A DNA stretch of 64,000 nucleotides, taken from the NCBI GenBank assembly GCA_044221725.1, contig JBGAON010000005.1:256001-320000 (forward strand). The letters run 5' to 3'. This document shows positions 1 to 17,982 of this stretch, piece after piece (positions within the stretch are counted from its first letter, which is position 1; each line of letters opens with the position of its first letter). Both the position numbers and the translations under genes were made by a program. The notes under the pieces were generated by a model. It saw only the letters and a program-made list of their open reading frames with translations. It was not told the DNA's origin and did no database searches. This stretch comes from Elusimicrobiota bacterium. Its GTDB lineage: Bacteria; Elusimicrobiota; Elusimicrobia; F11.

Positions 1-3000
1 AAGCTGGCAGCACAATTTCGACGGAACAGCGGTGCGCAGCGATAGCGTGACGGAAAACGATCTCGTGGTGTGGGCCGCCTCGGGCCGGGTTGTGCCGCGC
101 AGTGTTACGAACACGAGTTGGACCACGGATTGGACGAGCCGTTCCGTGTGGAACACCGGCGGTGTGCCGCTCATTGCGTTTGATGCCGAAGGGAACGCTG
201 TCGAAAATCTCAATGTGATTTGGGGTGGCCATTCGTTTGACTCTCCCTACGAAGGACCAACCGGTTGGCAGCGCTCGATCGGCACGACGTACTTCGCGAA
301 CAGCGACAACACGAAGCGCTCGTACAACAATTACGGACGCCCGACCGACGTGGCGCCATGGAGCGTGTCGAAATCTCAACGGTTCAACGCGCTTGGCGTT
401 CCGGGCGTCGACGTAAATTACGATGCGTCGATCAGCTACGGCACATCAAACAATGCGATCTGGCAAGCGACCGGCGTGCAGCGTTCGGATCTTCAAGTGA
501 CGCGATCGTGGAGTGCCACCGCGGATTTCTTTGCGTCGTTCACGGCGTTCGGTTTCGATAATCCGAATATTTCTGCGTTGACCGGCGAAGGCAGTGCGAG
601 TTGGACCATTTTGGATTCGCGCGGTTCGTATTTCTCGAGCGGTCCGGACATCGGAAAAATAAACCGAGCAATTGCTCCGCGCACGTACGGCGGAAGTTGG
701 CAGCATAACTTCGACGGGACCGCCGTGCGCAGCGACAGTGTTACACAAAACGATTTGACGGTTTGGGCCGCGTCGGGACGGATTGTGCCGCGCAGCGTAA
801 CGAACACAAGCTGGACCACGGACTGGACCAGCCGTTCCACGTGGCAAATCAACAACGTGCCAATCATTGGGTTGGATAGCGAAGGCCATTCGGTCGCCGG
901 ATTGGACCGAATTTGGGGCGGCCACAGTTTTGATAATCCGTACGTTGGACCGACCGGCTGGCAACGCAGTATTGGCACAACGTATTTTGCAAACAGCGAC
1001 AATTCCAAACGTTCGTACAACAATTACGGACGGCCGACCGACATCGCGCCGTGGAGCGTGTCGAAATCGCAGCGCTTTAATTCGCTAGGCATCACGGGCG
1101 TCGACATCAATTACGATGCGTCTATTAGTTACGGCACGTCGAACAATCTTATTTGGTACGCGACCGGCGTGCAGCGTTCAGAATTGCAAGTGACCCAAAC
1201 GTGGAGTGCCGCTGCAGGATTCGATGCGTCGTTCGCGAGTTACAGCTTCGACAATCCGAATATTTCCGATTTGACCGGCGAAGGCAGCACCAGCTGGAGC
1301 ATTTTGGATTCGCGCGGATCGTATTTTGATTCGGGCGCGGACATCGGGAAAATTAATCGCGCGGTAGCGCCGCGGAGTTATGGCGGCAGCTGGCAGCGCA
1401 CGTTTGACGGCACCGCCGTGCGCAGCGATAGCGTGACCGAGAACGATCTGTCCGTGTGGGCGGCATCGGGCCGTGTGGTGCCGCGCAGTGTGACGAACAC
1501 AAGCTGGACGACGGACTGGACCAGCCGTTCAAATTGGACCATCGCCGGCGTTCCTATTATTGGTCTGGACGCACAGGGAAATTCGGTGGTCGGTTTGAAT
1601 CGGATCTGGGGCGGACAAAGTTTTGACAATCCATTCGAAGGACCGACCGGTTGGCAGCGCAGTGTTGGTACAACCTATTTCGCGAATCGAGACGATTCGA
1701 AACGTGCGTACAACCTGTACGGTCGTCCCACGGATTTTGCTCCGTGGAGCGTTACGCAATCGCAACGATTCAATTCGCTTGGAATTCCGGGCGTCGATAT
1801 CAATTATGACGCCTCCATGAGTTACGGTGTATCAAACAATGCGATCTGGCAGGCGACCGGTGTGCAGCGTTCGGATATTCAGGTGACGCAAACCTGGAGC
1901 GCCGTTGCGGGTTTTGATGCATCGTTCCGGAATTACAATTTCGACAATCCGAATATTTCGGAATTGACCGGCGAAGGAAGCACGAGCTGGAGTTTGCTCG
2001 ATTCGCGCGGTTCGTATTTTGATTCGGGCGCGGACATTGGGAAAATTAATCGCGCGGTAGCGCCGCGGAGTTATGGCGGTAGCTGGCAGCGCACGTTTGA
2101 TGGCACCGCCGTGCGCAGCGATAGCGTGACCGAGAACGATCTATCGGTGTGGGCCGCATCGGGCCGCGTCGTGCCGCGCAGTGTGACGAACACAAGCTGG
2201 ACGACCGACTGGGCCAGCCGCTCGACTTGGAATATTGCTGGCGTTTCGATTGTCGGGCTTGATGCGCAAGGAAATTTGGTCGCGGGACTCGATCAAATTT
2301 GGGGCGGACAAAGTTTCGACGATCCGTACGAAGGCGCGACCGGATGGCAGCGCAGTATCGGAACCACGTTCTTTGCGAACGCCGACAACTCAAAACGCTC
2401 GTACAACTTGTATGGCCGCCCAACCGACGTCGCTCCGTGGAGCGTCACAAAATCGCAGCGGTTCAACGCGCTCGGTGTTCCAGGGGTGGATGTTAACTAC
2501 GACGCATCGATCAGTTACGGCACCAACAACAACGCCATATGGAAAGCGGTCGGCGTGCAGCGTTCCGATCTTCAAGTGACGCAATCGTGGAGCGCCACGG
2601 CGGATTTCGCGAATTCGTTTACGAATTTCAGTTTTGATAATCCGAATATTTCTGCGTTGACCGGCGAAGGTAGCACGAGTTGGAGTGTGCTTGATTCGCG
2701 TGGTTCATACTTTACGAGCGGTGTCGACATCGGAAAGATAAATCGCTCCGATGTGCCGAAGAGTTACGGCGGTAGCTGGCAGCGCACGTTCGACGGAACG
2801 GCCGTGCGCAGCGACAGCGTGACCGAGAACGATCTGTCGGTGTGGGCCGCATCGGGCCGGGTTGTGCCGCGCAGTGTCACGAACACAAGCTGGACGACCG
2901 ACTGGACAACGCGTTCGGTTTGGACAATTTCTGGAGTTCCTATTGTCGGTCTCGATGCCAACGGGAATTCCGTGGCGGGTCTGGATCGTATCTGGGGCGG

Positions 3001-6000
3001 AAACAGTTTCGAAAATCCATTCTCGGGCCCGACCGGATGGCAGCGGTCCTTTAGCAGTACGTATTTCGCGAACACGAACGATTCGAAACGCGCGTACAAC
3101 CTGTACGGCCGTCCAACGGATGTTGCTCCTTGGAGCGTCACCAAATCGCAGCGGTTCAACGCGCTCGGTGTTCCGGGCGTGGATATAAACTACGACGCGT
3201 CGATCAGCTACGGCACGAACAACAACGCGATTTGGAAAGCCACGGGCGTTCAGCGTTCCGACATTCAAGTGACACAAACGTGGAGCGCTGTTGCTGGATT
3301 CTCCGATTCGTTCTCGGTTTACAATTTCGACAATCCGAATATTTCGGACCTGACCGGGGAAGGCAGCACAAGCTGGAGCTTGCTCGATTCGCGCGGTTCC
3401 TATTACGAGTCCGGACGCGATATTGGAAAAATCAATCGGTCGAATATGCCGCGGAGTTACGGAGGCAGCTGGCAGCGCACCTACGATGGAACCGCAACGC
3501 GCAGCGACAGTGTGACCGATAACGATATCGACGTTTGGGCCGCGTCCGGAAGAATTGTGCCGCGCAGCGTGACGAACACGAGTTGGACCTCGGATTGGTC
3601 GTCGCGGTCCACGTGGCAAATTGCCGGATTTCCGATTGTCGGTTTGGATGCGGAAGGAAATGCCGTCGCGGGTCTGGATCGCATCTGGGGTAGCGACAGT
3701 TTCAATTCTCCATTCGAGGGGCCGACCGGATGGCAACGTTCGATCGGCACGACGTACTTTGCGAGCGGCGACAATTCGAAGCGCGCGTACAATTTGTATG
3801 GCCGCCCGGGCGATTTTGCTCCGTGGAGCGTTTCGATGTCGCAACGGTTCAATTCGTTGGGCGTGCCGGGAGTGGACGCAAATTACGACGCGTCGATCAC
3901 CTACGGCACAAACAGCAATGCGATCTGGAAAGCAACGGGGTCTCAACGGTCCGATCTGCAAATCACGAAAGGATGGAGCGCGGTGCCCGACTTCAGTGGT
4001 TCGTTCACAAGTTACAGTTTTGATAATCCGAACGTCTCGGTGTTAACCGGCGAAGCCACAACGAGCTGGAGCTTGCTCGATTCGCGCGGTTCGTATTATG
4101 AAAGCGGCGCCGACATTGGAAAAATAAATCGATCCGTTGCGCCCCGCACGTACGGAGGAAGTTGGCAACGGTCGTTCGATGGAACCGCAACGCGCAGCGA
4201 CAGCGTGACCGAAAACGATTTGTCGGTATGGGCCGCGTCCGGACGCGTGGTTCCGCGCGAGGTGACGAACACCAGCTGGACGACCGACGTGACGTCGCAT
4301 TCGCAGTGGAATGTCTCCGGCGTGCCCATTGGTGGATACGACGCCGATGGAAATGCGGTGCTTGGTTTGGACCGGATCTGGGGCGGAAACAGCTTTGATG
4401 CTCCGTACGTTGGTCCGACGGGCTGGCAGCGTTCCATTAGCACGACGTATTTCGCGAACAGCAACGATGCGAAACGCGCGTACAACTTGTACGGGCGACC
4501 AAACGATGTGGCGCCGTGGAGCATTTCGCAATCGCAGCGCTTCAACGCGCTCGGTGTGCCCGGCGTCGACATGAACTACGACGCGTCCATCAGTTACAGT
4601 ACCAACAACAATGCGATTTGGCAGGCGACCGGCGCGCAACGTTCGGATGAACAGGTGACGCAGTCGTGGAGCGCCACGGCCGATTTCGCCGGTTCGTTCG
4701 CGAGTTTCAGTTTTGATCATCCGAACATTTCTGATTTAACCGGGGAAGGAAGCACGAGCTGGAGTTTGCTTGATTCGCGGGGTTCGTATTTCACGAGCGG
4801 CCCGGACATCGGAAAAATTAATCGGGCCGTTGCGCCACGCAGCTACGGTGGAAGTTGGCAGCGCACGTTCGACGGAACCGCGACGCGCAGCGACAACGTG
4901 ACCGTGAACGATCTCGATGTGTGGTCCACCTCCGGCCGCGTGGTGCCACGCAGTATCACGAACACAAGTTGGACAACCGACTGGACAAGCCGATCGGTTT
5001 GGAATATTCCAGGCGTTTCCATTGGCGGACTTGATGCGCAGGGAAATCCTGTCGCCGGACTCGACCGTATTTGGGGCGGGAACAGCTTCGCTTCGCCTTT
5101 TGAAGGGCCCACCGGATGGCAGCGCAACATGAGCACAACGTATTTCGCGAATTCGAATAACTCCATTCGCTCGTACAACTTGTACGGGCGTCCAACGAAC
5201 GTGGCACCCTGGACTGTTTCGCAATCGCAACGATTCAATTCGCTCGGTGTTCCGGGTGTCGATGTAAATTATGACGCGTCCATTACTTACAACACAAACA
5301 ACAGCGCGATCTGGCTTGCGACCGGTGTGCAGCGTTCGGATATTCAGGTCACCGAAGGTTGGAGCGCGGTGGCCGACTTCGCGACGTCGTTCTCGCGCTA
5401 CAGTTTCGACAATCCAAACATTTCGGAGTTGACCGGCGAAGCGAGCACGAGTTGGAGCTTGCTCGATTCGCGCGGTTCGTATTTTGAATCGGGCCCTGAC
5501 ATTGGAAAAATAAATCGCGCGAACGTGCCGAAGAGTTACGGTGGGAGCTGGCAACGCAGCTTCGACGGTACGGCTGTGCGTAGCGACACCGTCACACGAA
5601 ATGATTTGTTTGTGTGGGCGGCGTCGGGCCGAGTGATTCCGCTGAGCGTCGAGAGCACAAGCTGGACCACCGACGCGACAAGCCGGTCGCAGTGGCAAAT
5701 TCCGGGCACACCGATTATGGGGCTGAACGCCGACGGGCAATTGGTGGGCGGTTTGGACCGAATTTGGGGCGGGAACAGTTTTGAGGCTCCGTTTGAAGGT
5801 CCCACCGGGTGGCAGCGTTCCATCAGCACGACGTATTTCGCCAACAGCGACAACACGAAGCGCGCGTACAATCAATACGGTCGGCCGACCGGACAGGCGC
5901 CGTGGAGCGTCACGAAGTCGCAGCGCTTCAACGCGCTCGGAATCCCTGGTGTGGATCTCAATTATGATGCGTCGATCAGCTACGGCACCAACAACAACGC

Positions 6001-6600
6001 GATTTGGCAAGCAACGGGAGCGCAACGCTCCGATGAGCAATTGACGAAAACATGGAGCGCCGCTGCTGAATTTGATGCGTCGTTCTCAGCGTACAGTTTC
6101 GATAATCCGAACGTTTCCGAGTTAACCGGCGAGGCGAGCACGAGCTGGAGTTTGCTTGATTCGCGCGGTTCCTATTTCACGAGCGGGCCCGACATCGGAA
6201 AAATTAATCGCGCTGTTGTGCCGCGCACCTATGGCGGCAGCTGGCAACGTAATTTCGACGGCACAGCGACGCGCAGCGATAGCGTCACCGTGAACGACCG
6301 CGACGTGTGGGGAACATCCGGTCGCGTGGTGCCGCGCAGCATTTCGAACACAAGCTGGACGACCGACTGGACTTCTCGTTCGAGCTGGAACCTTGCGGGC
6401 GTTCCTGTTGTGGGACTCGACGCCGAAGGAAATCTCGTTGCCGGCCTCGATCGCATTTGGGGCGGCTTTGATTACAACAGTCCGTTCGAAGGACCGACCG
6501 GGTGGCAGCGCAGCAAAGCGACCACGTATTTCGCGAGCGACGACAATTCGCGTCGCGCATACAATCTTTACGGACGGCCCACCGCGAACGCCCCGTGGAC
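1..6600 (+). repeat. Tandem 693-bp (231-aa) coding repeat, ~9.5 copies, degenerating to ~8600
   Basis: The GSWQ(H/R)xFDGTA motif recurs at exactly 1, 694, 1387, 2080, 2773, 3466, 4159, 4852, 5545 and 6238. More diverged copies follow. Confidence 0.97.
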
Positions 6601-9600
6601 AATTACGAACGGCCAGCAATACAACAGTCTTTCGTCGCCGGCGCTCGATGATGCGTATTCCGCGTTCCAAAGTTACACGACGTACAACGACACGATTTGG
6701 TCGGGCGTTGGAGTGCAACGAACGAAACAACAAATCACGTTGGGTTACAGCACGAACCGCGTCGGCGATGGATCGTTCGCCGATCCGTACGCGTCGACAG
6801 CGACCGGTGCGCGTTCCACGAACTGGAACGTGACCGATTACAGTGGCAGTTATTACACGACCGGCGCCGACATTGGAAAAATCATTCGCACGGTTGACGC
6901 GACGCCGAAATCGTACGGCGGAAGTTTTAGCGACGACGGTTTCTTAAACGTGACGCGCGCCGACACGTGGACCACGAACAACGCGGACATTTGGATGGCG
7001 TCGGGCCGTGTGGCGCCTTTGCAATCGGGCTTCACGAGTTGGACCAGCACGCGCACGAAAGGAACCTGGGATGCACGCGCGCACGTGGGCGCGAGCGTGA
7101 CGGCGCTGGACGCGTCCGGTCGTGCGCTCGACTTCAGTGTGATCAACGTTCTCGGTGACCACACCTTTGATGATCCGGCGAAACGCGTGACCGGAGCGTG
7201 GAACAAAACCAAAGGCACGACCTATTTTGATGTGAGCTACAACAATTACGGGCGGCCCGTCGGTGTGGCGCCGCGCTCGGTGACCGAATCACTGGATTAT
7301 TCGCCGGTGGCACCGTCCGTGGCAGGCGACATTCCCAACGCGTACACGGCGTCCATCACCTACGCCAGCAACAACGATGCGATTTGGGACGCCATTGGTG
7401 TCCAGCGCCCGCTCGTTCAGGCGCGTTACGGCTTTAACTCGAACGCGAACTGGGGCGGCAGTTTCGACGCGCCGACGAACGGCCTGCTCGGCACGAGCCG
7501 CAGTTGGAACGCCGTTTATTATAAGGACAGCTTCTTCACCGATCCGTCGGACATGACAACCATCGGTCGCGTGCGTCGCGGCGATGAAAAATATTTACCG
7601 ATATCGAAAGGCGGGTTCGAATCGTTCGACAATTTGATCACGTACTCGGCCGGAACCACCGAGACGACATTCAATCTCGACTATTGGAACCTCACCGGAA
7701 ATCTTCTGAACGCGTCTGTGCGCACGCGGACGTGGTCGTCGAGCGACGGACAAGCGAGCTGGGATGTGAACGCCGCGTTTGGTGCGAACTTGGTCGTGCA
7801 CGACGCCGGCAACAACGCCATTGATCTGGCGAGCCGCCCCGTGTACGGTCCGGGCAGTGTTGATGCGCCGCTTAAATTAATTGATGAGAGCAGTTTCCGT
7901 TCCCAGCTGGACACGGACTACAGCCGTTCGTTCTCGCTCGCGCTCGGAACTCTCGGGCGTCCGACGAACACGGCGCCGACGTCCACCGGTTGGCAGTGGT
8001 CCGACAACGGAACGGGTGCCGGTATCAGCAAAGCGATTCTCAGCCAAACCTACAACGATGAGATCTGGGGCCGTTTGCAAGAACAGCGCTTGGCCGACAC
8101 CACGCAAATATCGTTCTCGTCCGATGACAAATTGGTCAGCGGTCGTCCGGGAATTGATAGCGAATACGGTTCCGGATCGATCAACAATCCCATCGCGCAA
8201 GCGAACGACACGTCGTTCCGCGGCTACAACCACACGAGCTACAACAATTCTTGGAATCTCGCGAACGGTCAGCCGAACCCGGCCGTGCCTCCAACAACCG
8301 ACGGGTGGACACTGAATTTCGACGGGTTCCGGTACCAGAAAACGATCACAAACGTCACCAACCAAGCAGCGGTGTGGGGTTTTGACGCGCGCGCGGTATT
8401 CGAAAAATCCATCAGTCAGACATTTGATTCCGATGACACGGTCATCAGCAACAATCCGGAGCATCCGGATTTTGGAGGCGGAACGTACGCGACGCCGGTG
8501 CTCCGGGATGATCATCTGTTCAATCGCAGCCAAACAATTACAACGGCCGAAGGGTCGTTCGATCCGTACGGCATGCCGACCACGAAGGCGCCCATTTCGG
8601 TTGTCACCACCGACGCCGGCGAAATGTTCAAGACCCGCGATTTCGCGAACCAAGCGGACTTCAACCAAGCCGTGCAAGCCGTGAGCGCCCGCGTCGGACA
8701 GTTCTTCGATCTGTTGCCGTACACGCTCACGCAGCAACGTATGCTCGGAATTTTGCGCGACGATTTGAGCACGCCGTATTGGAACCCGAGCCTTGAAGAA
8801 GCGGCGAGCATAAAAGCATCGGTGATAACGGCGCTCAATGGTTGGGCCGCCAGTCACAACGCAAGCACGTCGTCGTACGATGATTTTTATGACTTTGTGG
8901 TCGGCGTGCTTGAAACGAGCGTGCCGCACTTGAGCGATCTCAAAAACGCGGACAATATGGATTTCGTGCAGCAACTTTACGACGACTTGTACCGTGGACA
9001 AGAATCCGGTCCGACGACGCGGTTCGTTGATGCGTTGCGCAGATTGCCATCCGACCCGGCGATTGCGAGCGAACTGAATTCCATTTTGAATTCGGGCGGC
9101 ACCTTTGTTCAGATCGCCTCGAAAGTAACGTCGCTCATGGCGAAAGCAAAAGACAAAGCGGTGGTGAACGCGCTCAGCACCCTGCTTTATAATTTCTCAG
9201 ACAAGAGTTCGCTAAAAAACACCTTCGCGTGGCGAAGTCTGCAGGACACGCAAATCGAGCAACGGTTCTCCGCGCAAGCGTGGCACAATACGGGCCAACA
9301 GCGCATCGAATATCGAAAGACCGACACGAAAGGCCAAGCGTTTGACGGAACCAAGTACGAAAGTTTCGTCGAAGTAAATTACACGCTGGACCCGAAGAGT
9401 GGCCTGACCGCGAACGCGAGCGGTCGCGGCTGGACAACAAACACCGATCCGGCCGGCAATTCCCAAAAAACGTCGTTCGAACAAACGTATGTGATTCGCT
9501 TGCACGAAGCACGGCTCGAACGGCAAACCTCGACCGCGTTTGAGTCGTTCTTCAACGACGGATCAAGCACGAAATTGATTGGCCAAAATTACACCGAATA

Positions 9601-12600
9601 TGAGTACGACGCCGTTGGCCGGCTCACGGGGGCGCACGGCGAAAGCGGAACGCGCTCGGACGATGGGTTTGGAAATGTCACCGAAACGCAAACGTCGCTT
9701 TTCTACACGATCATCAAAGGAGCCGCGAAACTCGATCACAGTTTAAGCACCTCCATCAGCGCGACCACCGACGGAAATTACACGGTGCCGGTGGGCGGCC
9801 CCGCGCGCACGAATTACCATTACGACACGGCCGGAAACTTGTTGAGCGCCGATTCCACAAACAACGTGTCTCAAACCGTCGATTCGTTTGGCAATCGGCA
9901 AGACCGCAGCGTGTCGATCGAATTCCGATTGTTTGTTGGACAGGTGCGCGCCGCGCGCGTGTTCAGTTCGGTTGACGCGTTCAATATCGACGGATCCATC
10001 AGCCACACGGACACGTTGACGAGCAACCGGTTCCTGTCGTCGGGGGCGCTACCGAAAGTTGTCACGTCGACATCGAAGAGCGTGTTCCGTGGCGATGACG
10101 GGAATTTGAATTTCACCGTGGGCCGTTCGTACACCGAGTCGCAGAACATTATGGGTCTTTCCAAGCAAACCTCGTCGGTGAACATTGCGCTGCTGGCAAA
10201 TTTTGATGGATCCGTTGTGCAATCAAAATCCACGTTTGTGTCGCAATACACGGGCGGTGTGCTGGCGGGCGGAAACGCGGTGCGGGAATCGTGGAGCGAT
10301 GACGGGTTTGGCAATTTGGATGCGGGCGACGGCTTCGACACGTACGTGGCCATCGGGGGCCTTTTGAAGATTGCGAGCTCGACCTCGCGCAATGTGCACG
10401 CGGCGCGCGACGAGTCGGTGTCGTGGTCGTCCACGAAAATCGATTATGCGTACAAATGGGTTTCGACGCGCACGCCGTTCGGTGGTGTTGGCCTCATCAG
10501 TATGTTGGACCGAGCGATTGGGATCGGCACGAACAAATCGAACGATGGATGGGGAAATATCACGCACGGCCAATCGGTGCTGACGTTCGCGGTCATTGCG
10601 GGTCAGGCGCGCCCGCTCAGTACAATTTCCGACAACATCACGCGCGCGATGACAGGCGCCACCACAATCTCGCACTCGGAAACGTACACGCTGTACAACA
10701 CGGTCGGCCGCGCGTATCGACAGTTCGGAATCGGCAGCAGCAACACCGACGATGGTTTTGGAAACAAGACCTGGGAAACGCTCACGGATACGGAATTCGT
10801 TTTGATGCACGGGAAATTCAAAGTGGCCGAGGTGCACAGCCGCGGTGGATTCCTGCGACGCGATTTAAATTACGGTGTGAATTCCAGCGACACGTATTAC
10901 CTCTATGCAGCGAACGATCAATTGCTCACGGCCCGCGGTTCCCGTTCGTCGTTGGGCACCGATCAGTGGGGAAATTACAACGACAGTTCGACGCAGGTCG
11001 TCTACGGAATTTTTGCGGGCCAAGCGCGCGCGGTGAAAACGGAAACCACGTCGCACAGCCGCCGTATTGATTCGTCATGGACCGACAGCAGCGATACCGA
11101 AATTATGGGCTACAACGCGGGCGGACGAATCATGGCCGCGAGCAATTCGTCGATCAGCTTTGGTGGCGACGGATTTGTATCGGTGAATTCGAGCGTGAGC
11201 AACACGGTCCAAGCGATTGCTTTCGGTTCTCCGGTTGCCGTCGAATCGTTTACGCACACCGAGAGCTCGGACATTCGCGGCGATTGGAGTCAGAGCGACA
11301 ACTTGACCGATTATTTCTACAGTCGAAACGCCACGTACGTGATGCCACTCGACGTGTTCAACGACATGCACGTGTACTACGCGCCGTTCCTCGCCACAAA
11401 CAATCTAACCGTGTTCAATAGTCAGAGCTTCGCGAGCGGAATTCTTACGACCGAAACGGGCGGCTTGCGCATGAGCGCGATCATCGGCGACACGAATCTC
11501 ATGCGCGATATTCACGAAGAGATCGGGTATCGCACCGGCGTAATTCGAATTCAAGATCTCACCGGATGGTATAGCCAAGACAACACCACCGCGCGCCGCA
11601 AATCGGATTATCAATACGACTTGGGAACCGCGGCGTTTCTCACCGGTCAATCGGTGACCGAAACATTTACGGACAAGCGCGAAATGAGCCAGATGGGAAC
11701 GAGCAACGCCTACCAGGGCAGCTCCGTTTCCATTGCGCTCTACACAAATGTGGCCGGTAAACGGGTGGTTGCGATGGACTCCACGAACTCGACCGATTTT
11801 GTGATTGTCGCGGGTCGGCTGGCCTCGACGTCCACGAGCCAGACGATTTCCGAATATTTTTACAACGATGTGGGAAATGCCACGTACAAAACGGCCGACA
11901 CGATCACGGACAGTGAGGAATCTGTTCCGACACTCCCGCCGGTCATCGGGCCCGCCGTCGACGACTTCTTCTTCGGCGCAAAAGGATCGCTGTCGCATTC
12001 TCGAAGCTTTACGTACTCCGAAAACGTTTACGGATTTTTGGACCCGGTGTTCACAAAGAGCGAAAGCACCTCTTGGAATACCTTCCGCTCCGCTGTGACC
12101 GAGCGAACGTCCATCCTCACGTATCAGTTTAATAGGTTCGGTGAAGTTGGGCGTGAAGGCCGTTGGTTCAGTGCGACGAGAAACGCGTGGTACGAGAACT
12201 GGAGCGGAACGCCGGGGGATGAAGAAGCTTTTGACGCCGAAGACGCGAACGTTGTCACGCGGTCCTGGGGAGAGGATACTTACCAGACATATCGGTACGT
12301 CCGCGGTCAACTTGTTCATTCGCGAGTCGACAGTCATACGAATGGACGAACGACGACCATTGACACCACGTACAACCGTGACGTGATCACCGGCAAAGGA
12401 TTGTCGACCGACACGGTCACCCGCAGCGGCAATATTGGCGCGACAAACGATTGGTGGAGCCTCGTCATCGATCATTCGATCGAGTACGCGATCGACAGCT
12501 ACAACGTGGTCACCGAATCTGAACAGCGGTATTCGGGCGTTGCATTTTTTGAGGTTGCCTCGGGCCGCGGCGCGCTGGTCCCAATTTTCGTTTCGTTTGT

Positions 12601-15600
12601 GCAGGACTATAAGTACGACGGACAAGCGCTGCTCACTTCCATTAACGTGCGAAACGTGAACGCGTCCATAGTTTTCGGCACGGCGCGCGGCTCGTTCCAA
12701 AATATCGGCGATCTGACGCGCGCTACCAGCGGCGAGATGGCGAAGCAAGGATTCGTTGTGCCACCCTCGTATCTATACGCGGGAACTCTTGAGAACGCGA
12801 TGGCGCGAGGTGGGATTCGCGTGAATTACCGACGTGAGATGGATGTTTCCTCAGGTCGCACGGCGCTTCTCGGATACGAATCGTTTAACTTTGGATTCAT
12901 GGGATGGACCGAAGAAAATACTCTGCGCGACACGAAAGGCGACGCGATTGAACTAAGCAAACAGACCTTCTACAAATACGATGGAAATGTTCTCGCGTCC
13001 ACCGACCACATTCTCGATTTGTTCCATCTCACAACATTCCAAACCATGTTCCCCGAGAGCAATCTCAATCAAACGTCGGACATCTATGTCTACATGCACA
13101 CAATGGTGTTCCGCAGCCCGCGCAACGAAGATGGCGAAATGATCCCGGACCCGAACAACCTCCTCGGAAAAGGCGCAACGCCCATGATGGAACAGTATCT
13201 TGAAGAATTCATTCAAATGGCCGACAACGGGTTTGCGCCGTGGATGAAATTCGACGGTGTGGTCACGATGCCCGGCGTGTTGACGAACCGCGACAGATAC
13301 AATTCGAATCGCGCGTACTTTACGCAGGGATGGACGGCCTTGCCGTGGTTTATTTCCGACGTGAACTGGGGACCGAGCGGTGCGCGGCTGTTCCCGCAAC
13401 AGTCGTTTGGCGGATTCAACGCTTCCAATATCGCGCTCCAAATGATTTCCGATTACGGCGTGTCGCATCTCACGCCGGGCGGTGTGCAAATCGTAGCGGC
13501 GTCGGGCGACAACCGGTTCGATCCATTGTGGTATTTGCCGCCGACCGCGTGGTTGCCGGCCGGAGGTTACTTGTATCAAGTAACAGACACCGGACAACCG
13601 GGACGACCGCACATTTGGCAACCACGTAACCTGTATGCATTTTCCGATGATGAAGGCGCTGCCGACGAAGAAGAGGTTGAACCGTTCAATCTGCTCGACC
13701 TGCCGAGCTTTGTCGCGCGCGCGGTAATTTTGGTGGCGCTGGTGTGGGCCGGCGCGCCCGACGCGAGTTCGGCGGATAGCCAAGTGCAGCTGGCACCCAC
13801 CGAGGACGGGCATTCCGAGAGAACGCCCGCCGCGGAGGAAGGAAAGAATCCCGATGCACAGGCGAACCCGCAGGGCAACGGGCCAGCGGTCGGAAAAGCG
13901 CCGGATCGGCCACTGAAAATCGAAACGAACGGCACCGTGCCGTTGAAGGACAACGAAGGCAAAGTGACGGAGACGCGAAGGGAAATTGTGAATGCACCGA
14001 CCGAGCCGTCCGAGCCGAGCAAACCAAACTTCTTGTTTGCGGCTATTAAAGGAGTGTTGGTGAATCTAATCGTCGTTGCGACCGCTGTTCTGAAATTTAC
14101 CGAAGTGAAGCCGGCCGGCAAAGAGGTCGTGAAGCCCGCCGTGCAGAACGATGCCCCCAAAATCGCAGGCGCAGTCGTTCGGAAGAAAGACCCTAATAAT
14201 AAGGAGAGACATCCGGATAATAGGGAGAACGTGCGCAAAGACGGCGAGAAATTCGAACTGAAGAAAGGCGCCATCGAAGTCGACAAGAATGGTCGCCTCC
14301 GATTGACGGCGGCCGAAGCGAAGAAATTCGCGCGCGGCAGCGAGATCAAACTGCTCGGCAAGAACGGCAAAGAGATCACGGTGACGGTTGGCCCGAACGG
14401 ACTGCTTGTGTTCAAAGAAAAGAACAAACCGTCGGAGCAGCTGCTTAAGGAAATCTTCACGCCGCTGCTGAAACAAGATTTGAACGGGCGCGTAGAATTG
14501 CGCGCCATGGTTTCCAATCAAGGCCGCACGTGGTTTGTTCGCGCGCCGGACGCACCGGTGGTAAGACGCGCGCAAATCGACCGTGTTCTCGAACAGGTCA
14601 AGCTGGCGCCGGTTGGCGAAGGCGAGGAAAATCCCAACGTTGGGCCCGCGAAAGTGAACGGCAATCTCGAACAGAATCCGAAATTAGGAAAAGCGGGCGA
14701 GAAGCCGCAAACCGACGCGGTAGTAGCGCGCGGCCTCTTGTCGCGCTTGGCACAAGCGCTCAACGTGTCGCCGCGAGAATTGACGATATTGCTGACGAGA
14801 GCCGAAAAACGGGCCCTGGAAAAAGGTGGCGTTGGTCCCACCGTGTTGCTGCGCACCTTTCTGCAAGCCGTGAAACTTGGAGACCAGGTTTCTTCGGCAA
14901 AATTGTACGCGGCGCTCGTCACCGAATTAAAAGACGTGAAACGCGAAGCGAACATCGGTGCCGGCCCGGTCGCGAAACCAAACGTCGCGAAACCGCAAAA
15001 CGAAGCGAAGGTGAATGCGGCGCAACCGAACGCGAACGAGAGGGACGAGAAACAAAAAGCCGAAGTGAAATTCCAAGCGCCGATGGTGAGTTTGTTGGGA
15101 GCGTTGCGGCAAATGTTGCGCGTGGAGGATAAGCAGCGCGGACTCGATGCGCGCGCACCGCAACAAATCTCGCTAAACATTGATGAGAACGGAAAACCGT
15201 CGTTGATTGTGAACGTCGGGGGAAAAACCGTCACATACAAGGTCGGCGAGCAAGTTGTTCTCGCCGTGGCGGGCCAACGTTTGGTTGTGAAGATTGGCAC
15301 CGATGGCTTCATCGTTCAAAATCCGAAAAACGTTTTCACGGTGGGCGCCGTACTGAGCGCGTTGTTGCCAAAAGGAGAAAAAGGCACAGCGCAGGTTATC
15401 GGTGTCACCAAAGACAACGCCGGTCAAACGGTGCTGCGCGTTGTGAACGCCACAGCCACCGATCTTGGATTGAAACTAACGTTTGCTGGGAAAAACGAAA
15501 CTGTTCAATCGAACCAAATCGATTTGATTGCGCAAGCGCACCACGTGAAAGCGACTGAAACACTCGATGGTCCGAAAATTGGCGAGAGAGTTTTCCAAAT

Positions 15601-17230
15601 TTCCGCCGTCGTTGATCGCCGAACGGGTTTCGATGCCAAACAATTTTTCGTCGAGAACTTGTTGGGGCGCCAAGTCGATCAGCAAGACGGAAATCGTATC
15701 ACAGTGCTCGTGCTCGACACGAAAGGAAACGTGATCCGCGCGGCGTTCAATTACGACAAGCAGAATATCGAATTTAAACAGGACGCAAAGCCGGCCATCG
15801 GCTCGCTCGTTGTTGCAGCCGGATTTGGAACCGCGAAAGCGACGCTGACCGCGGAGGGGAAGCCGGTGTTCGGTGTGGGCGGCAACGGTCCCATCGTAAA
15901 CAAAGCGCCGGCCGCGAACAATTTCGTTAATAACGGAGCAAAGCCGGTGGGCAACAACGCGATCGCGGTACCGAACGCCGCCGCAGTGAAACCGAATTTT
16001 GTATCGCTCGTGGGCGTTTTCTCAGCGAATGTTTCGCCGATCGCTACGGCCACCGCCCACACGGCGGTGAAATTCTCGGAGTTGTTCGCCCGTTTCGTTG
16101 TCGGCGATAAGATTGGTGGAAGGGACTCGGTGGGTCTTGTGTCGCGATTCACCGGTTATCTTGTCGCGGTTGGCGACAAAACCGTTCAGTCGCTCATCAC
16201 GCTCATCGCGCCGCGCACCCCGATGATTGTGAACGGTCGGTCGCCGTTCGTAATAACGGAAAATCCTCAGATTGGGCGCACGACGTTGAATATCAGCGAA
16301 CTGAAAGAGTTGGCGAAAACCTTTGAAGGCCGCCTTTCTATTCTCGATCAGTTGGGAAATCTGAAAGTGGACACGAAGACCATGTCGCAGGTGCTCGGCT
16401 TGCTCGCGATGCCCGCGGTTCAAAGTCTGCAACAGCCGTTTATCCGCGTCGATAAAAATGTGAACGGCACCTATATCGTTGAGGCGCGCGGCCGCGACAA
16501 CGACGGAAACGCGATCCGCATCACACCGAACGGAAAGATGGAGCGCATTCCGGAACAAGAGATCCCGAAGAAAGTCCCGGCGCCAGGATTGTGGAAGCGG
16601 TTTGAGTCAACCAACGATAACAATCAAATCGATCTCAACAGATTTCATTCGTTCGCTGTTGCGCCGACAGCGATTGCGAGGGAAACAGCGGGCGCGATCC
16701 TTGTGTCCGACGCCGGATCTGCGCTTATCGCACGCGAGATTCGCAATCTCACGCCGGCGTTTGCGACGGCGGACAGCATTGGAATTTCGGATGCGAGCTA
16801 CGCGAAATTGCCGGGTCGGTTTGTTCCTTACCACACGCATCTCGGTTGGCCAAACACGTTTCATGGTTTGGCGCGGTTCGCACCGACGGCCGAAGACGTG
16901 CGTACGCACCGATCGCTCATGAACAAGTTCGCGAAAACGCACGGAACGGATTTGTCGTTGCCGGGCGTGATCTATTTTGCGTCGGGCGAGAAAACCTTAT
17001 TCTGGGTCGGAGAAAGCGATCACGAGCTCGTGAAACTGGAAGTGCTCGATGCTGAGGGTGCACGACGCGTTGCACACGTGACGGTTCAACAATTGGAGCT
17101 TGCAGAGCTGACCGGCGAATTGAATGTTGTGAGCGACGATGGCGTGAGAGAACCGGCGGGTGTGGCAGCGTCGAACAAAATTGTAATGCTAAACCTTAGA
17201 ATGGATTTGTGGGACAAGAAGAAAAGATAA
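1..17230 (+). CDS. Giant repeat-rich secreted/surface protein, 5' truncated (>5,740 aa in window)
   Basis: Single uninterrupted ORF. The frame is already open at nt 2 (SWQHNFDGTAVRSD..., mid-repeat), so the start lies upstream of the window. Stop TAA at 17228-17230. Confidence 0.95.
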   Translation, partial: SWQHNFDGTAVRSDSVTENDLVVWAASGRVVPRSVTNTSWTTDWTSRSVWNTGGVPLIAFDAEGNAVENLNVIWGGHSFDSPYEGPTGWQRSIGTTYFANSDNTKRSYNNYGRPTDVAPWSVSKSQRFNALGVPGVDVNYDASISYGTSNNAIWQATGVQRSDLQVTRSWSATADFFASFTAFGFDNPNISALTGEGSASWTILDSRGSYFSSGPDIGKINRAIAPRTYGGSWQHNFDGTAVRSDSVTQNDLTVWAASGRIVPRSVTNTSWTTDWTSRSTWQINNVPIIGLDSEGHSVAGLDRIWGGHSFDNPYVGPTGWQRSIGTTYFANSDNSKRSYNNYGRPTDIAPWSVSKSQRFNSLGITGVDINYDASISYGTSNNLIWYATGVQRSELQVTQTWSAAAGFDASFASYSFDNPNISDLTGEGSTSWSILDSRGSYFDSGADIGKINRAVAPRSYGGSWQRTFDGTAVRSDSVTENDLSVWAASGRVVPRSVTNTSWTTDWTSRSNWTIAGVPIIGLDAQGNSVVGLNRIWGGQSFDNPFEGPTGWQRSVGTTYFANRDDSKRAYNLYGRPTDFAPWSVTQSQRFNSLGIPGVDINYDASMSYGVSNNAIWQATGVQRSDIQVTQTWSAVAGFDASFRNYNFDNPNISELTGEGSTSWSLLDSRGSYFDSGADIGKINRAVAPRSYGGSWQRTFDGTAVRSDSVTENDLSVWAASGRVVPRSVTNTSWTTDWASRSTWNIAGVSIVGLDAQGNLVAGLDQIWGGQSFDDPYEGATGWQRSIGTTFFANADNSKRSYNLYGRPTDVAPWSVTKSQRFNALGVPGVDVNYDASISYGTNNNAIWKAVGVQRSDLQVTQSWSATADFANSFTNFSFDNPNISALTGEGSTSWSVLDSRGSYFTSGVDIGKINRSDVPKSYGGSWQRTFDGTAVRSDSVTENDLSVWAASGRVVPRSVTNTSWTTDWTTRSVWTISGVPIVGLDANGNSVAGLDRIWGGNSFENPFSGPTGWQRSFSSTYFANTNDSKRAYNLYGRPTDVAPWSVTKSQRFNALGVPGVDINYDASISYGTNNNAIWKATGVQRSDIQVTQTWSAVAGFSDSFSVYNFDNPNISDLTGEGSTSWSLLDSRGSYYESGRDIGKINRSNMPRSYGGSWQRTYDGTATRSDSVTDNDIDVWAASGRIVPRSVTNTSWTSDWSSRSTWQIAGFPIVGLDAEGNAVAGLDRIWGSDSFNSPFEGPTGWQRSIGTTYFASGDNSKRAYNLYGRPGDFAPWSVSMSQRFNSLGVPGVDANYDASITYGTNSNAIWKATGSQRSDLQITKGWSAVPDFSGSFTSYSFDNPNVSVLTGEATTSWSLLDSRGSYYESGADIGKINRSVAPRTYGGSWQRSFDGTATRSDSVTENDLSVWAASGRVVPREVTNTSWTTDVTSHSQWNVSGVPIGGYDADGNAVLGLDRIWGGNSFDAPYVGPTGWQRSISTTYFANSNDAKRAYNLYGRPNDVAPWSISQSQRFNALGVPGVDMNYDASISYSTNNNAIWQATGAQRSDEQVTQSWSATADFAGSFASFSFDHPNISDLTGEGSTSWSLLDSRGSYFTSGPDIGKINRAVAPRSYGGSWQRTFDGTATRSDNVTVNDLDVWSTSGRVVPRSITNTSWTTDWTSRSVWNIPGVSIGGLDAQGNPVAGLDRIWGGNSFASPFEGPTGWQRNMSTTYFANSNNSIRSYNLYGRPTNVAPWTVSQSQRFNSLGVPGVDVNYDASITYNTNNSAIWLATGVQRSDIQVTEGWSAVADFATSFSRYSFDNPNISELTGEASTSWSLLDSRGSYFESGPDIGKINRANVPKSYGGSWQRSFDGTAVRSDTVTRNDLFVWAASGRVIPLSVESTSWTTDATSRSQWQIPGTPIMGLNADGQLVGGLDRIWGGNSFEAPFEGPTGWQRSISTTYFANSDNTKRAYNQYGRPTGQAPWSVTKSQRFNALGIPGVDLNYDASISYGTNNNAIWQATGAQRSDEQLTKTWSAAAEFDASFSAYSFDNPNVSELTGEASTSWSLLDSRGSYFTSGPDIGKINRAVVPRTYGGSWQRNFDGTATRSDSVTVNDRDVWGTSGRVVPRSISNTSWTTDWTSRSSWNLAGVPVVGLDAEGNLVAGLDRIWGGFDYNSPFEGPTGWQRSKATTYFASDDNSRRAYNLYGRPTANAPWTITNGQQYNSLSSPALDDAYSAFQSYTTYNDTIWSGVGVQRTKQQITLGYSTNRVGDGSFADPYASTATGARSTNWNVTDYSGSYYTTGADIGKIIRTVDATPKSYGGSFSDDGFLNVTRADTWTTNNADIWMASGRVAPLQSGFTSWTSTRTKGTWDARAHVGASVTALDASGRALDFSVINVLGDHTFDDPAKRVTGAWNKTKGTTYFDVSYNNYGRPVGVAPRSVTESLDYSPVAPSVAGDIPNAYTASITYASNNDAIWDAIGVQRPLVQARYGFNSNANWGGSFDAPTNGLLGTSRSWNAVYYKDSFFTDPSDMTTIGRVRRGDEKYLPISKGGFESFDNLITYSAGTTETTFNLDYWNLTGNLLNASVRTRTWSSSDGQASWDVNAAFGANLVVHDAGNNAIDLASRPVYGPGSVDAPLKLIDESSFRSQLDTDYSRSFSLALGTLGRPTNTAPTSTGWQWSDNGTGAGISKAILSQTYNDEIWGRLQEQRLADTTQISFSSDDKLVSGRPGIDSEYGSGSINNPIAQANDTSFRGYNHTSYNNSWNLANGQPNPAVPPTTDGWTLNFDGFRYQKTITNVTNQAAVWGFDARAVFEKSISQTFDSDDTVISNNPEHPDFGGGTYATPVLRDDHLFNRSQTITTAEGSFDPYGMPTTKAPISVVTTDAGEMFKTRDFANQADFNQAVQAVSARVGQFFDLLPYTLTQQRMLGILRDDLSTPYWNPSLEEAASIKASVITALNGWAASHNASTSSYDDFYDFVVGVLETSVPHLSDLKNADNMDFVQQLYDDLYRGQESGPTTRFVDALRRLPSDPAIASELNSILNSGGTFVQIASKVTSLMAKAKDKAVVNALSTLLYNFSDKSSLKNTFAWRSLQDTQIEQRFSAQAWHNTGQQRIEYRKTDTKGQAFDGTKYESFVEVNYTLDPKSGLTANASGRGWTTNTDPAGNSQKTSFEQTYVIRLHEARLERQTSTAFESFFNDGSSTKLIGQNYTEYEYDAVGRLTGAHGESGTRSDDGFGNVTETQTSLFYTIIKGAAKLDHSLSTSISATTDGNYTVPVGGPARTNYHYDTAGNLLSADSTNNVSQTVDSFGNRQDRSVSIEFRLFVGQVRAARVFSSVDAFNIDGSISHTDTLTSNRFLSSGALPKVVTSTSKSVFRGDDGNLNFTVGRSYTESQNIMGLSKQTSSVNIALLANFDGSVVQSKSTFVSQYTGGVLAGGNAVRESWSDDGFGNLDAGDGFDTYVAIGGLLKIASSTSRNVHAARDESVSWSSTKIDYAYKWVSTRTPFGGVGLISMLDRAIGIGTNKSNDGWGNITHGQSVLTFAVIAGQARPLSTISDNITRAMTGATTISHSETYTLYNTVGRAYRQFGIGSSNTDDGFGNKTWETLTDTEFVLMHGKFKVAEVHSRGGFLRRDLNYGVNSSDTYYLYAANDQLLTARGSRSSLGTDQWGNYNDSSTQVVYGIFAGQARAVKTETTSHSRRIDSSWTDSSDTEIMGYNAGGRIMAASNSSISFGGDGFVSVNSSVSNTVQAIAFGSPVAVESFTHTESSDIRGDWSQSDNLTDYFYSRNATYVMPLDVFNDMHVYYAPFLATNNLTVFNSQSFASGILTTETGGLRMSAIIGDTNLMRDIHEEIGYRTGVIRIQDLTGWYSQDNTTARRKSDYQYDLGTAAFLTGQSVTETFTDKREMSQMGTSNAYQGSSVSIALYTNVAGKRVVAMDSTNSTDFVIVAGRLASTSTSQTISEYFYNDVGNATYKTADTITDSEESVPTLPPVIGPAVDDFFFGAKGSLSHSRSFTYSENVYGFLDPVFTKSESTSWNTFRSAVTERTSILTYQFNRFGEVGREGRWFSATRNAWYENWSGTPGDEEAFDAEDANVVTRSWGEDTYQTYRYVRGQLVHSRVDSHTNGRTTTIDTTYNRDVITGKGLSTDTVTRSGNIGATNDWWSLVIDHSIEYAIDSYNVVTESEQRYSGVAFFEVASGRGALVPIFVSFVQDYKYDGQALLTSINVRNVNASIVFGTARGSFQNIGDLTRATSGEMAKQGFVVPPSYLYAGTLENAMARGGIRVNYRREMDVSSGRTALLGYESFNFGFMGWTEENTLRDTKGDAIELSKQTFYKYDGNVLASTDHILDLFHLTTFQTMFPESNLNQTSDIYVYMHTMVFRSPRNEDGEMIPDPNNLLGKGATPMMEQYLEEFIQMADNGFAPWMKFDGVVTMPGVLTNRDRYNSNRAYFTQGWTALPWFISDVNWGPSGARLFPQQSFGGFNASNIALQMISDYGVSHLTPGGVQIVAASGDNRFDPLWYLPPTAWLPAGGYLYQVTDTGQPGRPHIWQPRNLYAFSDDEGAADEEEVEPFNLLDLPSFVARAVILVALVWAGAPDASSADSQVQLAPTEDGHSERTPAAEEGKNPDAQANPQGNGPAVGKAPDRPLKIETNGTVPLKDNEGKVTETRREIVNAPTEPSEPSKPNFLFAAIKGVLVNLIVVATAVLKFTEVKPAGKEVVKPAVQNDAPKIAGAVVRKKDPNNKERHPDNRENVRKDGEKFELKKGAIEVDKNGRLRLTAAEAKKFARGSEIKLLGKNGKEITVTVGPNGLLVFKEKNKPSEQLLKEIFTPLLKQDLNGRVELRAMVSNQGRTWFVRAPDAPVVRRAQIDRVLEQVKLAPVGEGEENPNVGPAKVNGNLEQNPKLGKAGEKPQTDAVVARGLLSRLAQALNVSPRELTILLTRAEKRALEKGGVGPTVLLRTFLQAVKLGDQVSSAKLYAALVTELKDVKREANIGAGPVAKPNVAKPQNEAKVNAAQPNANERDEKQKAEVKFQAPMVSLLGALRQMLRVEDKQRGLDARAPQQISLNIDENGKPSLIVNVGGKTVTYKVGEQVVLAVAGQRLVVKIGTDGFIVQNPKNVFTVGAVLSALLPKGEKGTAQVIGVTKDNAGQTVLRVVNATATDLGLKLTFAGKNETVQSNQIDLIAQAHHVKATETLDGPKIGERVFQISAVVDRRTGFDAKQFFVENLLGRQVDQQDGNRITVLVLDTKGNVIRAAFNYDKQNIEFKQDAKPAIGSLVVAAGFGTAKATLTAEGKPVFGVGGNGPIVNKAPAANNFVNNGAKPVGNNAIAVPNAAAVKPNFVSLVGVFSANVSPIATATAHTAVKFSELFARFVVGDKIGGRDSVGLVSRFTGYLVAVGDKTVQSLITLIAPRTPMIVNGRSPFVITENPQIGRTTLNISELKELAKTFEGRLSILDQLGNLKVDTKTMSQVLGLLAMPAVQSLQQPFIRVDKNVNGTYIVEARGRDNDGNAIRITPNGKMERIPEQEIPKKVPAPGLWKRFESTNDNNQIDLNRFHSFAVAPTAIARETAGAILVSDAGSALIAREIRNLTPAFATADSIGISDASYAKLPGRFVPYHTHLGWPNTFHGLARFAPTAEDVRTHRSLMNKFAKTHGTDLSLPGVIYFASGEKTLFWVGESDHELVKLEVLDAEGARRVAHVTVQQLELAELTGELNVVSDDGVREPAGVAASNKIVMLNLRMDLWDKKKR
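9300..11330 (+). repeat. Degenerate ~70-aa YD/RHS-like repeats within the giant protein
   Basis: D(G/S)(F/W)GN-type motifs at about 9445, 9656, 9878, 10091, 10295, 10538, 10745, 10958 and 11162, with Y(D/N)xxG(R/N)L motifs such as EYEYDAVGRL and YHYDTAGNL. Confidence 0.75.
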
Positions 17231-17274
17231 GCGTTAAGAATTACACCTACTGTCGGGCCGGGATGACGGCTCTA

Positions 17275-17973
17275 TTATTCTTGCGCGAGGTAGCGATAAC
17301 CGATGCGCTCGACGGTTTCGATCTTGTTTTCGTAGCGTCCGAGTTTTTTCCGCAGTCGACCGACGTGCACGTCGACGGTGCGCGTGTTGCCCACCAACTC
17401 ATGGCCCCATACTGACTCGCACAGCACTTCGCGCGTTAACACCGTGTTCTTCGCGCGCATGAGAGCGGCCAACAAATCAAATTCTTTCGGGGAAAGATCC
17501 ACCGGCTTCTTATCAATCTCAAGCCGATGTTGATCCAAATGGATTTTGATGGTTCCGTCTTCGATCATGCCGTGCATCGGATCTTTCGGTTTGGAACGGC
17601 GGAGCACCGCGCGGATGCGCGCGACAAACTCGCCTTGGTTGAACGGTTTCACAATGTAATCGTCGGCGCCGATTTCCAAGCCAGCGATTTTGTAGGAATC
17701 CACGGATTGAACGGTCAGCATAACGACCGAAAGGTTGGCCGTGTTCGGATTTGCGCGAAGTTTCTTAATGATGCCAAAGCCATCTTCATCGGGAAGTTGC
17801 AAATCGAGCACCACAAGATCCGGTTTAAAAGTGCCAACCAATTTGAAGAAGTCGGCGGCTGAGGACGCGGTTTCTACAATGAATCCTTCGCGTTCGAGAA
17901 CCATTTCGACCAGGCGGCGAATATCCGGGTCGTCGTCGACAACAATGATCTTTTGTTTAATTTCAGAAGCCAT
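17275..17973 (-). CDS. OmpR/PhoB-family response regulator
   Basis: Receiver domain (VVDDD, DLVVLD, ADDYIVKPF) plus winged HTH (RTVDVHVGRLRKKL, GYR). AGGAG lies 5-6 nt before the ATG at 17973. Confidence 0.95.
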   Translation of the reverse strand: MASEIKQKIIVVDDDPDIRRLVEMVLEREGFIVETASSAADFFKLVGTFKPDLVVLDLQLPDEDGFGIIKKLRANPNTANLSVVMLTVQSVDSYKIAGLEIGADDYIVKPFNQGEFVARIRAVLRRSKPKDPMHGMIEDGTIKIHLDQHRLEIDKKPVDLSPKEFDLLAALMRAKNTVLTREVLCESVWGHELVGNTRTVDVHVGRLRKKLGRYENKIETVERIGYRYLAQE

Positions 17974-17982
17974 TTGCACTCC

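Follow-up and report, generated by a model that had tools for sequence, protein, structure and literature searches.

Introduction

Long, exported, beta-rich stalks that carry an enzyme at their C-terminus are known from CdiA and filamentous haemagglutinin, which offer a functional analogy here, while the bodies of RHS proteins are built from YD repeats of about 20 amino acids (aa). JAB domains are among the tips described for RHS proteins, as Tox-JAB-1 and Tox-JAB-2/DUF4329, and it has been argued that such toxin JABs may be nucleases, not peptidases (Zhang et al., PMC3482391). For giant proteins of the Omnitrophota, hollow RHS-like antiparallel beta tubes of about 1,500 aa have been predicted (10.1101/2023.11.21.568195), further precedent for giant genes or RHS-like tubes is given in PMC12057145, and the Elusimicrobiota are reported to be rich in huge proteins without functional assignment (PMC11573180). 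Here we analyze a stretch of 64,000 nucleotides (nt) from an Elusimicrobiota bacterium of the order F11 (assembly GCA_044221725.1, contig JBGAON010000005.1, positions 256,001 to 320,000; hereafter the window), which opens with the 3' third of one giant gene. With a probability of about 45%, we consider its product to be a single-chain, exported, RHS-like stalk or tube of about 2 MDa that carries a metalloenzyme to non-kin cells. No description of the family, its repeat or its tip was found in the literature searched, a search that left subscription papers mostly outside and for which preprint supplements may still hold such sequences or models.

Extent and authenticity of the giant gene

Within the window the gene occupies positions 2..17230 of the + strand (the strand of all its features given below), an open reading frame (ORF) of 5,742 open codons whose 5' end is not closed there. 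In the source genome (G000; 2.82 Mb in 5 contigs, 93.9% complete) the gene lies on contig C2, where the frame is open from G000:C2:219180 to 273230 and the first ATG stands at G000:C2:219210, 36.8 kb upstream of the window. The protein is 18,006 aa long (1.96 MDa) and its gene makes up 1.9% of the genome. Residues are numbered here by the 18,016-codon stop-to-stop frame (numbering from the ATG is lower by 10), so that the window starts at residue 12,275 and holds residues 12,275-18,016. A preliminary description of the window, which had read a giant modular protein of more than 5,700 aa and proposed consulting upstream sequence for its full length and signal, was thus right about a real protein that is three times longer. 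Thr, Ser, Gly, Asn and Asp account for 45% of the ORF. Cysteine is absent from the window part, as had been noticed, and occurs once in the whole protein, within an N-terminal signal-like stretch. There a basic n-region precedes a hydrophobic stretch (Kyte-Doolittle peak 1.96), relatives being similar, and judged by eye this is a putative Sec-like signal. The acidic stalk (isoelectric point, pI, 5.0) stands against a basic C-terminal part of about 133 kDa (pI 9.4).

Copies of the 231-aa repeat that dominates the start of the window are at most 82% identical in DNA, with four-fold third positions 45% identical and a longest identical run of 47 nt; repeats so diverged argue that the gene is not an assembly expansion. 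A different species of the same genus (G002) holds a collinear ORF of 18,143 aa, with 52-66% identity to that of G000 in all 20 segments of 500 aa across residues 1-10,000 and 47-49% at residues 15,001-16,000. The repeat array is 27-38% identical and off-diagonal, and no match between the two was found at residues 17,001-17,500. DNA runs from two other studies were compared with window positions 7300-18000, the 231-aa array (window 1-7300) being left out; they reach 29 of the 30 bins, 25 of 35 and 33 of 72 contigs are at least 99% alike, and no contig spans the whole stretch. One RNA run, in whose library DNA carry-over is possible, gave contigs in 16 of the 30 bins, 14 of the 15 being at least 99% alike. 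The giant gene is confirmed as real and not an artefact.

Repeats and predicted fold of the stalk

Some 16,000 residues, or about 90% of the chain, consist of a four-strand YD-like unit of about 70 aa. An iterated hidden Markov model (HMM) of this unit finds 87 copies above 10 bits in the whole G000 giant (8 of them in the window) and 99 in G002, against a maximum of 3.6 bits in five shuffles. The 231-aa repeats form an array of 19 copies in exact register, 10 of which start inside the window (260 to 6497); the 17 core copies are 69-86% identical. The in-window part of this array (2..7189) gives way at its edge to degenerate single units, or half-repeats (7190..8590), with four matches at residues 14,696-15,087. 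Compared directly as profiles, the 70-aa unit and the 231-aa repeat showed a weak link (probability 2.8%, E 0.016), and the array of G002 was needed as a bridge. An HMM from that array, which also matches ordinary units outside the G000 array, gives 38 matches in the 19 G000 repeats in two fixed registers, at 12.8-52 bits versus a shuffle maximum of 5.9. Because each G000 repeat is matched twice, we conclude that the 231-aa repeat is two lengthened four-strand units. G002 has expanded an array of its own, with repeats of about 245-250 aa.

Nine of the ~70-aa units, at 9368..11314, are predicted to form a continuous antiparallel beta-meander, a view in which AlphaFold2 (AF2), Pfam RHS_repeat (22.7 bits) and Foldseek agree. 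The AF2 model of residues 15,397-16,045 (649 aa, 52-row alignment) has a predicted local distance difference test (pLDDT) score of 92.5, a predicted template modelling score of 0.80 and 36-38 antiparallel strands, most of them 13-15 residues long, with no helix. Structure prediction in segments followed by Foldseek had been proposed in the preliminary description; for this piece the search gave 132 matches below E 0.001, with shells of Rhs, teneurin and Tc proteins at the top (best E 3.5e-12). We read the modelled stalk as a curved RHS-like meander with a different overall geometry. An outer-membrane barrel was considered and rejected, the barrel matches spanning only 137-240 residues of a much longer polar meander.

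At the level of sequence, PF05593 (RHS_repeat) is weakly matched in two stalk segments, at 22.7 and 28.6 bits against a cut-off of 22, and TIGR01643 in one of seven segments (20.5 against 15.8), suggesting an RHS kinship that is weak and above cut-off in some segments. A PDB sequence search with the stalk gave one non-significant Rhs match (E 0.43). A single stalk piece found no homologue among 7,999 candidates, and stalk profiles found 5 of 7,998 and 4 of 8,000; apart from two, one labelled Chlamydiota and one without a name, these carry the label Elusimicrobia or F11. The nearest Atlas clusters are unnamed Elusimicrobiota proteins, at a low recognition score of 954. Pfam, NCBIfam and PHROGs assigned none of the tip, 231-aa repeat, insert, cap and linker to a family, in a scan that left out residues ~10,600-12,270, which hold the same repeat as the scanned copies. 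No known adhesion domain was matched in the segments scanned, nor did any of them map to a known adhesin family; a mapping of all segments to such a family, which the preliminary description had named as an objection to its reading, is thus not seen.

The C-terminal JAB domain

The protein ends in a JAB/MPN-fold domain with a full JAMM-type site (16598..17227, assigned by motif and VIA-align). The codons of the site lie at window positions 16682 (Glu), 16832 and 16838 (His), 16886 (Thr) and 16895 (Asp), and the terminal Trp-Asp is conserved. Glu, His-x-His (HxH), Thr and Asp are invariant in all 11 aligned sequences, and an exhaustive search of 1.84 billion representatives with the tip gave 23 matches, 20 with the motif and three that are fragments beginning past it. 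In the predicted model (pLDDT 78.5) the His pair closes a strand while Thr and Asp begin a helix. With VIA-align the tip matches PfJAMM1 (Z 9.1, root-mean-square deviation (rmsd) 2.9 over 116 residues), AMSH/Sst2 (8.7), Rpn11 (7.8), Cap3 (8.3) and RadC (7.6), at 6-18% identity. Rows 1-33 of the VIA list we take, from their titles, to be MPN-containing entries, as are 45 of the 46 rows listed by Foldseek, where the best E is 5.2e-3 and none falls under 0.001. Since the two lists converge on the JAB/MPN fold and the motif agrees, we assign that fold to the tip, though the Z scores alone are middling.

The named Atlas clusters nearest to the tip are DUF4329 and Toxin-JAB1 (0.92 and 0.91, as language-model likeness). 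PF15659 and PF14220 matched none of 11 members in a Pfam scan at E <=1 and did not hit the tip in any of five genomes at E <=10, and a PDB sequence search with the tip gave no match at E <=10. The tip is a new JAB family, matched by no Pfam, NCBIfam or PHROG model. In some genera its JAB domain carries an insertion of about 60-75 aa, placed after the Glu strand and before the His pair (tips at L012, L013, L011 and L093). An ordinary Prok-JAB gene of G000 is separate and has only the motif in common with it.

Insert, cap and linker

Between the half-repeats and the nine modelled units lies a probably helical insert of about 200 aa (8639..9227; about residues 15,150-15,350), which has no Pfam match and is conserved in the order, being kept in all four orthologs tested at 30-48% identity. 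Past the stalk an order-specific cap with degenerate YD-like turns (11327..13609; residues 16,050-16,810) ends near an Asp-Pro at residue 16,781 (window 13520-13525) that is found in 8 of 9 orthologs. The cap is conserved in the order only: among 401 genomes it matched seven genomes of the order strongly and one other weakly, and a metagenome scan confirmed 0 of 194 stretches. A complex prediction of the cap (residues 380-761 of A2) with the tip scored 0.00, which is evidence neither way.

The cap is followed by a variable, mostly basic linker of about 1,100 aa and near-constant length (13610..16597). In eight orthologs it spans 1,017-1,210 aa from Asp-Pro to HxH, with a positive net charge in seven and a mean identity to G000 of 9-20%. 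Residues 17,001-17,500 form a Lys-rich region (10% Lys, net +24). Over seven orthologs, identity amounts to 22-38% in stalk and cap, 9-20% past the Asp-Pro and 40-43% in the last 200 aa. An acidic patch with two hydrophobic stretches (13640..14095; the stretches at 13685-13753 and 14027-14095, with Kyte-Doolittle peaks of 1.96 and 2.26) is not conserved among orthologs. By hydropathy, two of the eight orthologs have a strong hydrophobic segment just past the cap, which makes the two hydrophobic helices of G000 a local trait; two others have no linker segment above 1.6, and weak segments occur elsewhere at unrelated positions.

Most of this anatomy had been anticipated in the preliminary description. 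The tandem 231-aa repeats, the degenerate half-repeats, the ~70-aa YD-like repeats, a unique region (the cap), the Lys-rich region and the JAB-like C-terminus, in motif and in fold, all stood. Two elements stood in part: the helical insert is present, its helicity being judged by eye, and the acidic patch with two hydrophobic helices is present, a role for the two helices being unsupported.

Distribution and related giants

The tip is present in a single copy in 11 of the order's 12 genomes, covering all eight genera; the twelfth has the cap, on a contig that breaks off within the linker. Searches of 29 genomes from the other families of the class did not find the tip. In viral contigs 0 of 43 stretches were confirmed. 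The tip's close homologues carry the labels Elusimicrobia or Elusimicrobiota and include Ca. Obscuribacterium magneticum, which has been placed in order F11 (10.1101/2022.07.08.499144). The N-terminal 600 aa are spread further, with matches in 25 of 401 genomes of the phylum, from nine families and mostly in ORFs of 2,000-18,000 aa. This JAB is absent from all 27 related giant ORFs. Eleven of them have a stop in the DNA examined, four in repeat-like sequence and seven after a distinct end, where above the Pfam cut-off there is one Ntox10, one RES, one RHS repeat, one EAL + GT2 past hydrophobic segments and, in three, nothing. Most giants rich in the four-strand unit run off their contigs. These sequences suggest that tips may be swapped on the four-strand stalk.

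Several related giants deserve separate mention. That of G025 (L052-L053; 11,500 aa) has the same N-terminus and a C-terminal region with multiple hydrophobic segments, EAL and GT2. G002 has two more giants with the shared N-terminal region, of 9,977 and 7,808 aa (L046:3958-L047, G002:C5; G002:C11), the longer of which carries Ntox10 and is followed 4 nt on by a same-strand 353-aa gene, in the manner of a toxin-immunity pair. The 5,149-aa giant of G028 has RES near its end and an overlapping downstream gene of 73 aa (L061:16813-18059). A PLA2-like motif seen by eye at the end of the G252 giant was not confirmed. G000 itself has 37 stop-to-stop frames of at least 1,500 aa, eight of them over 5,000 aa (13,703; 8,881; 8,776; 8,370; 8,031; 8,005 and 5,198 aa besides the 18,006-aa giant). 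Four big frames stand in a row upstream on C2 (C2:153733-204047), and several end in a similar short motif; none of the other large frames of G000 matches the giant.

Genomic context

In the 44-nt gap past the stop there is a weak terminator-like hairpin (17250..17282, + strand; 2 overlapping sites versus 0.6 expected), beyond which a convergent response regulator and histidine kinase (17275..19539, - strand) bound the locus as conserved 3' neighbours, with no membership of a common system implied. The regulator lies 3' of the giant in all 14 ortholog loci. In three exceptional loci the genes in the gap look unrelated by eye; in G007 (L013:17180-17718) two small same-strand genes past the stop are, by their look, presumably a ribbon-helix-helix/RelE-type pair.

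Upstream of the giant gene (L001:4141-17861) lie a Tad-like cluster (TadG-like, CpaB, CpaF, TadB), an Omp85/POTRA gene, a CHASE2 adenylate cyclase and an ABC-2 transporter. Within the order the Tad genes recur at 4 of 5 loci, and the cyclase and ABC transporter at 5 of 5. The cluster stands beside none of ten related giants of other families, two of which have less than 3 kb of flank, and this neighbourhood may be plain synteny. The Omp85 gene was considered as a dedicated transporter and rejected as such for want of proof: it is present at two of five order loci, and G000 has five genes of the Omp85 type in all. No PAAR match was found in the first 1,000 aa of the giant. A true polymorphic toxin locus lies elsewhere in the genome (G000:C5:583000-605000), where a canonical 2,461-aa RHS protein is followed by three orphan Rhs-core ORFs (359, 396 and 87 aa).

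Further along the window, positions 19618-24019 hold a PilB/GspE-type ATPase with MshEN followed by GAF-HD, PilZ and GAF proteins, also found at several orthologous loci, which by gene content is probably a cyclic-dinucleotide-linked pilus or secretion cluster. Positions 25404-36265 hold ordinary arginine and lysine biosynthesis genes, a TolC-type protein, a patatin and TPR proteins.

Discussion

We propose that the N-terminal signal would send the giant chain out via Sec and that its sheet would wind into a long ribbon or hollow tube, estimated at roughly 100-250 nm from at least 130 units and about 520 strands, the repeat array tuning the length of the stalk. The basic C-terminal ~133 kDa would be stored in or displayed on the acidic stalk, an arrangement that parallels the negatively charged interior described for an Rhs container (10.1101/2024.02.26.582050). 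A cut close to where the cap ends may release this part, which would reach a cell touched by the bacterium, where the JAB domain would act as a zinc isopeptidase or a nuclease. Given a conserved tip that lacks an immunity partner, the protein would be aimed at a cell that is not kin (prey or host) or at a substrate not present in that compartment of the producer. In favour of such a carrier stand the fold and RHS kinship of the stalk, the JAB fold of the tip with its invariant residues, the JAB tips known from RHS proteins and the hollow tubes predicted in Omnitrophota giants. The conserved body, variable linker and terminal enzyme also recur from ortholog to ortholog, and among the giants with a matching N-terminal region, from nine families, seven have a distinct intact end without this JAB, two of these ends being the toxin-type Ntox10 and RES. 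A bolder form of the proposal, in which the 2-MDa polypeptide is a hollow beta-nanotube more than 100 nm long, a one-gene delivery organelle that holds the ~133-kDa cargo in store and brings a JAMM metallo-isopeptidase inside prey or host cells with ubiquitin-like tags (protists or archaea), strikes us as rather unlikely.

A number of results weigh against the carrier proposal. The stalk model (649 aa) reaches template modelling (TM) scores of only 0.07-0.17 with RHS shells, at an rmsd of about 30 Å and with no superposition, and its best VIA-align rows are partial fits to unrelated beta-barrels and single-layer sheets, with Z up to 10.6 and 12.7. TIGR03696, the Rhs-associated core, has four matches in the genome at E <=10, all of them in the RHS locus on C5 and none in the giant gene. 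The RHS autoprotease motif is described as the aspartyl pair DPxG-X18-DPxG (PMC13018210); the giant has a single Asp-Pro without Gly and no such pair. With no Rhs-associated core, no DPxG pair and the Asp-Pro missing in one of nine orthologs, no cleavage mechanism is identified. Export would depend on a signal stretch recognized by eye. PF04717, the VgrG base domain and the one type VI secretion system (T6SS) marker searched, is not found in the one genome searched (93.9% complete). Described toxin tips are variable and paired with immunity genes, and the giant's tip is neither: in 11 of 14 ortholog loci no same-strand ORF of at least 60 aa precedes the regulator. The Ntox10 and RES giants share the N-terminal region only and have no four-strand unit matches, and the sole relative that combines the unit with an intact distinct end of another kind (G037; 15,714 aa, 53 units; L072-L073-L043) ends in six hydrophobic segments.

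The protein could instead serve as a structural appendage or as an adhesin, with a JAB domain that does housekeeping work in maturation, cutting or helping to assemble its own 2-MDa precursor and never entering other cells. JAB domains in phage tail assembly provide a precedent, and the single copy, the fixed synteny and a tip better conserved (40-43%) than the stalk (22-38%) have the look of a core function. Such an enzyme needs no immunity gene, the Tad-like cluster lies upstream at four of the five order loci compared, and self-cleavage by a built-in peptidase has been proposed for Omnitrophota giants (10.1101/2023.11.21.568195). We nevertheless judge it somewhat improbable: giants of other families share the N-terminus and often the unit without this JAB, meaning that the stalk can do without it, searches matched no adhesion domain, and the variable 1,100-aa linker is left unexplained. 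Less probable still is a membrane-anchored giant of the Omnitrophota type, with the stalk outside, a helix past the cap crossing the inner membrane, and a cytoplasmic signalling or regulatory output made up of the basic linker with the JAB domain. In G000 and G001 the order of acidic patch, hydrophobic helix and basic region agrees with the positive-inside rule, and the hydrophobic ends of the G037 and G025 giants, the latter with EAL and GT2, point the same way; most Omnitrophota giants are reported to have transmembrane helices or signal peptides (10.64898/2026.06.07.730766), and the prokaryotic JAB peptidases described in PMC3482391 are intracellular. Yet three quarters of the orthologs compared have no strong segment after the cap, and the two helices of G000 would bring the C-terminus back outside.

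That the giant is a classical polymorphic toxin for kin competition, with swappable tips and cognate immunity, is largely refuted and in our estimation very unlikely. A JAB tip on an RHS-like body is among the layouts described for this class (PMC3482391), and distant relatives bear other tips, two of them with a small same-strand gene directly past the stop. Set against this are the same tip throughout eight genera, the lack of room for an immunity gene in the 44-nt gap of G000 and at most other loci, and the presence in the same genome of a true RHS locus with orphan cores, of which the giant gene has none. The chance that the gene is an assembly expansion or chimera, as the preliminary description had cautioned, or an unexpressed ORF is negligible: the array lies outside the read comparison and no contig spans the stretch, but the diverged repeats, the full-length collinear ortholog, the matching DNA of two other studies and the RNA run all speak for the gene. 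Of the broader picture drawn in the preliminary description, an RHS- or teneurin-type architecture holds for the kinship of the beta-rich stalk (AF2, Pfam, Foldseek), a closed cage being unproven. The effector-like tip holds as a JAB-fold module and not in the polymorphic-toxin sense. The likeness to giants of predatory or parasitic bacteria holds insofar as homologue names point to a lineage rich in giant genes, while predation and delivery remain putative.

A 54-kb gene kept across a whole order of 2-3.6-Mb genomes must matter to the way of life of these bacteria. For one giant the full anatomy is now at hand, with an uncatalogued four-strand repeat, a high-confidence fold and the principle of the RHS shell stretched about tenfold. 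The 210-aa tip and a stalk piece of 650 aa are of a size that can be studied directly, which makes the question of the role of a giant gene testable.

Among known systems, the RHS/YD toxins (T6SS Rhs, the Tc BC shell, WapA) and teneurin-like proteins share with the giant the YD-like turns, the antiparallel meander, an acidic body with a basic C-terminal enzyme and the drop in conservation past the Asp-Pro. The giant differs from them in being about ten times longer, in hairpins of about 35 aa with strands of 13-15 aa, in TM scores of at most 0.17, in its conserved tip and in having neither an Rhs-associated core nor an immunity gene; the C-terminal part of a TLP measures about 15 kDa (PMC13018210), that of the giant about 133 kDa. 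With Tox-JAB-1 (PF15659) and Tox-JAB-2/DUF4329 (PF14220) it shares the JAB fold and the series E, H[ST]H, S/T and D at the C-terminus of a YD-like protein, but its tip has Thr for Ser, 14 residues from the second His to the Thr and a following extension of about 90 aa, is matched by neither HMM and has no partner gene of the Imm65 or Imm-NTF2-2 type. The JAMM/MPN+ isopeptidases (PfJAMM1, AMSH/Sst2, Rpn11, Cap3) and RadC have the same fold and order of metal-site residues, whereas the giant's tip is fused to a giant body predicted to be exported. The Omnitrophota giants of the Archaeovorin and Dockerin types are likewise giant ORFs, from a related phylum; compared by description, their tube sits in multi-domain proteins with multiple transmembrane segments and SecA-like and carbohydrate domains, while about 90% of the giant is meander, the scanned parts showing none of these Pfam domains and hydropathy no conserved transmembrane segment. 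In contrast to CdiA and filamentous haemagglutinin, it has no match to two-partner secretion or haemagglutinin domains, is an antiparallel meander and not a parallel beta-helix, and has an Omp85 gene upstream at only two of five order loci. The giant would work like an RHS- or CdiA-type carrier, yet on tests of membership it falls outside both the RHS toxins and the polymorphic toxins.

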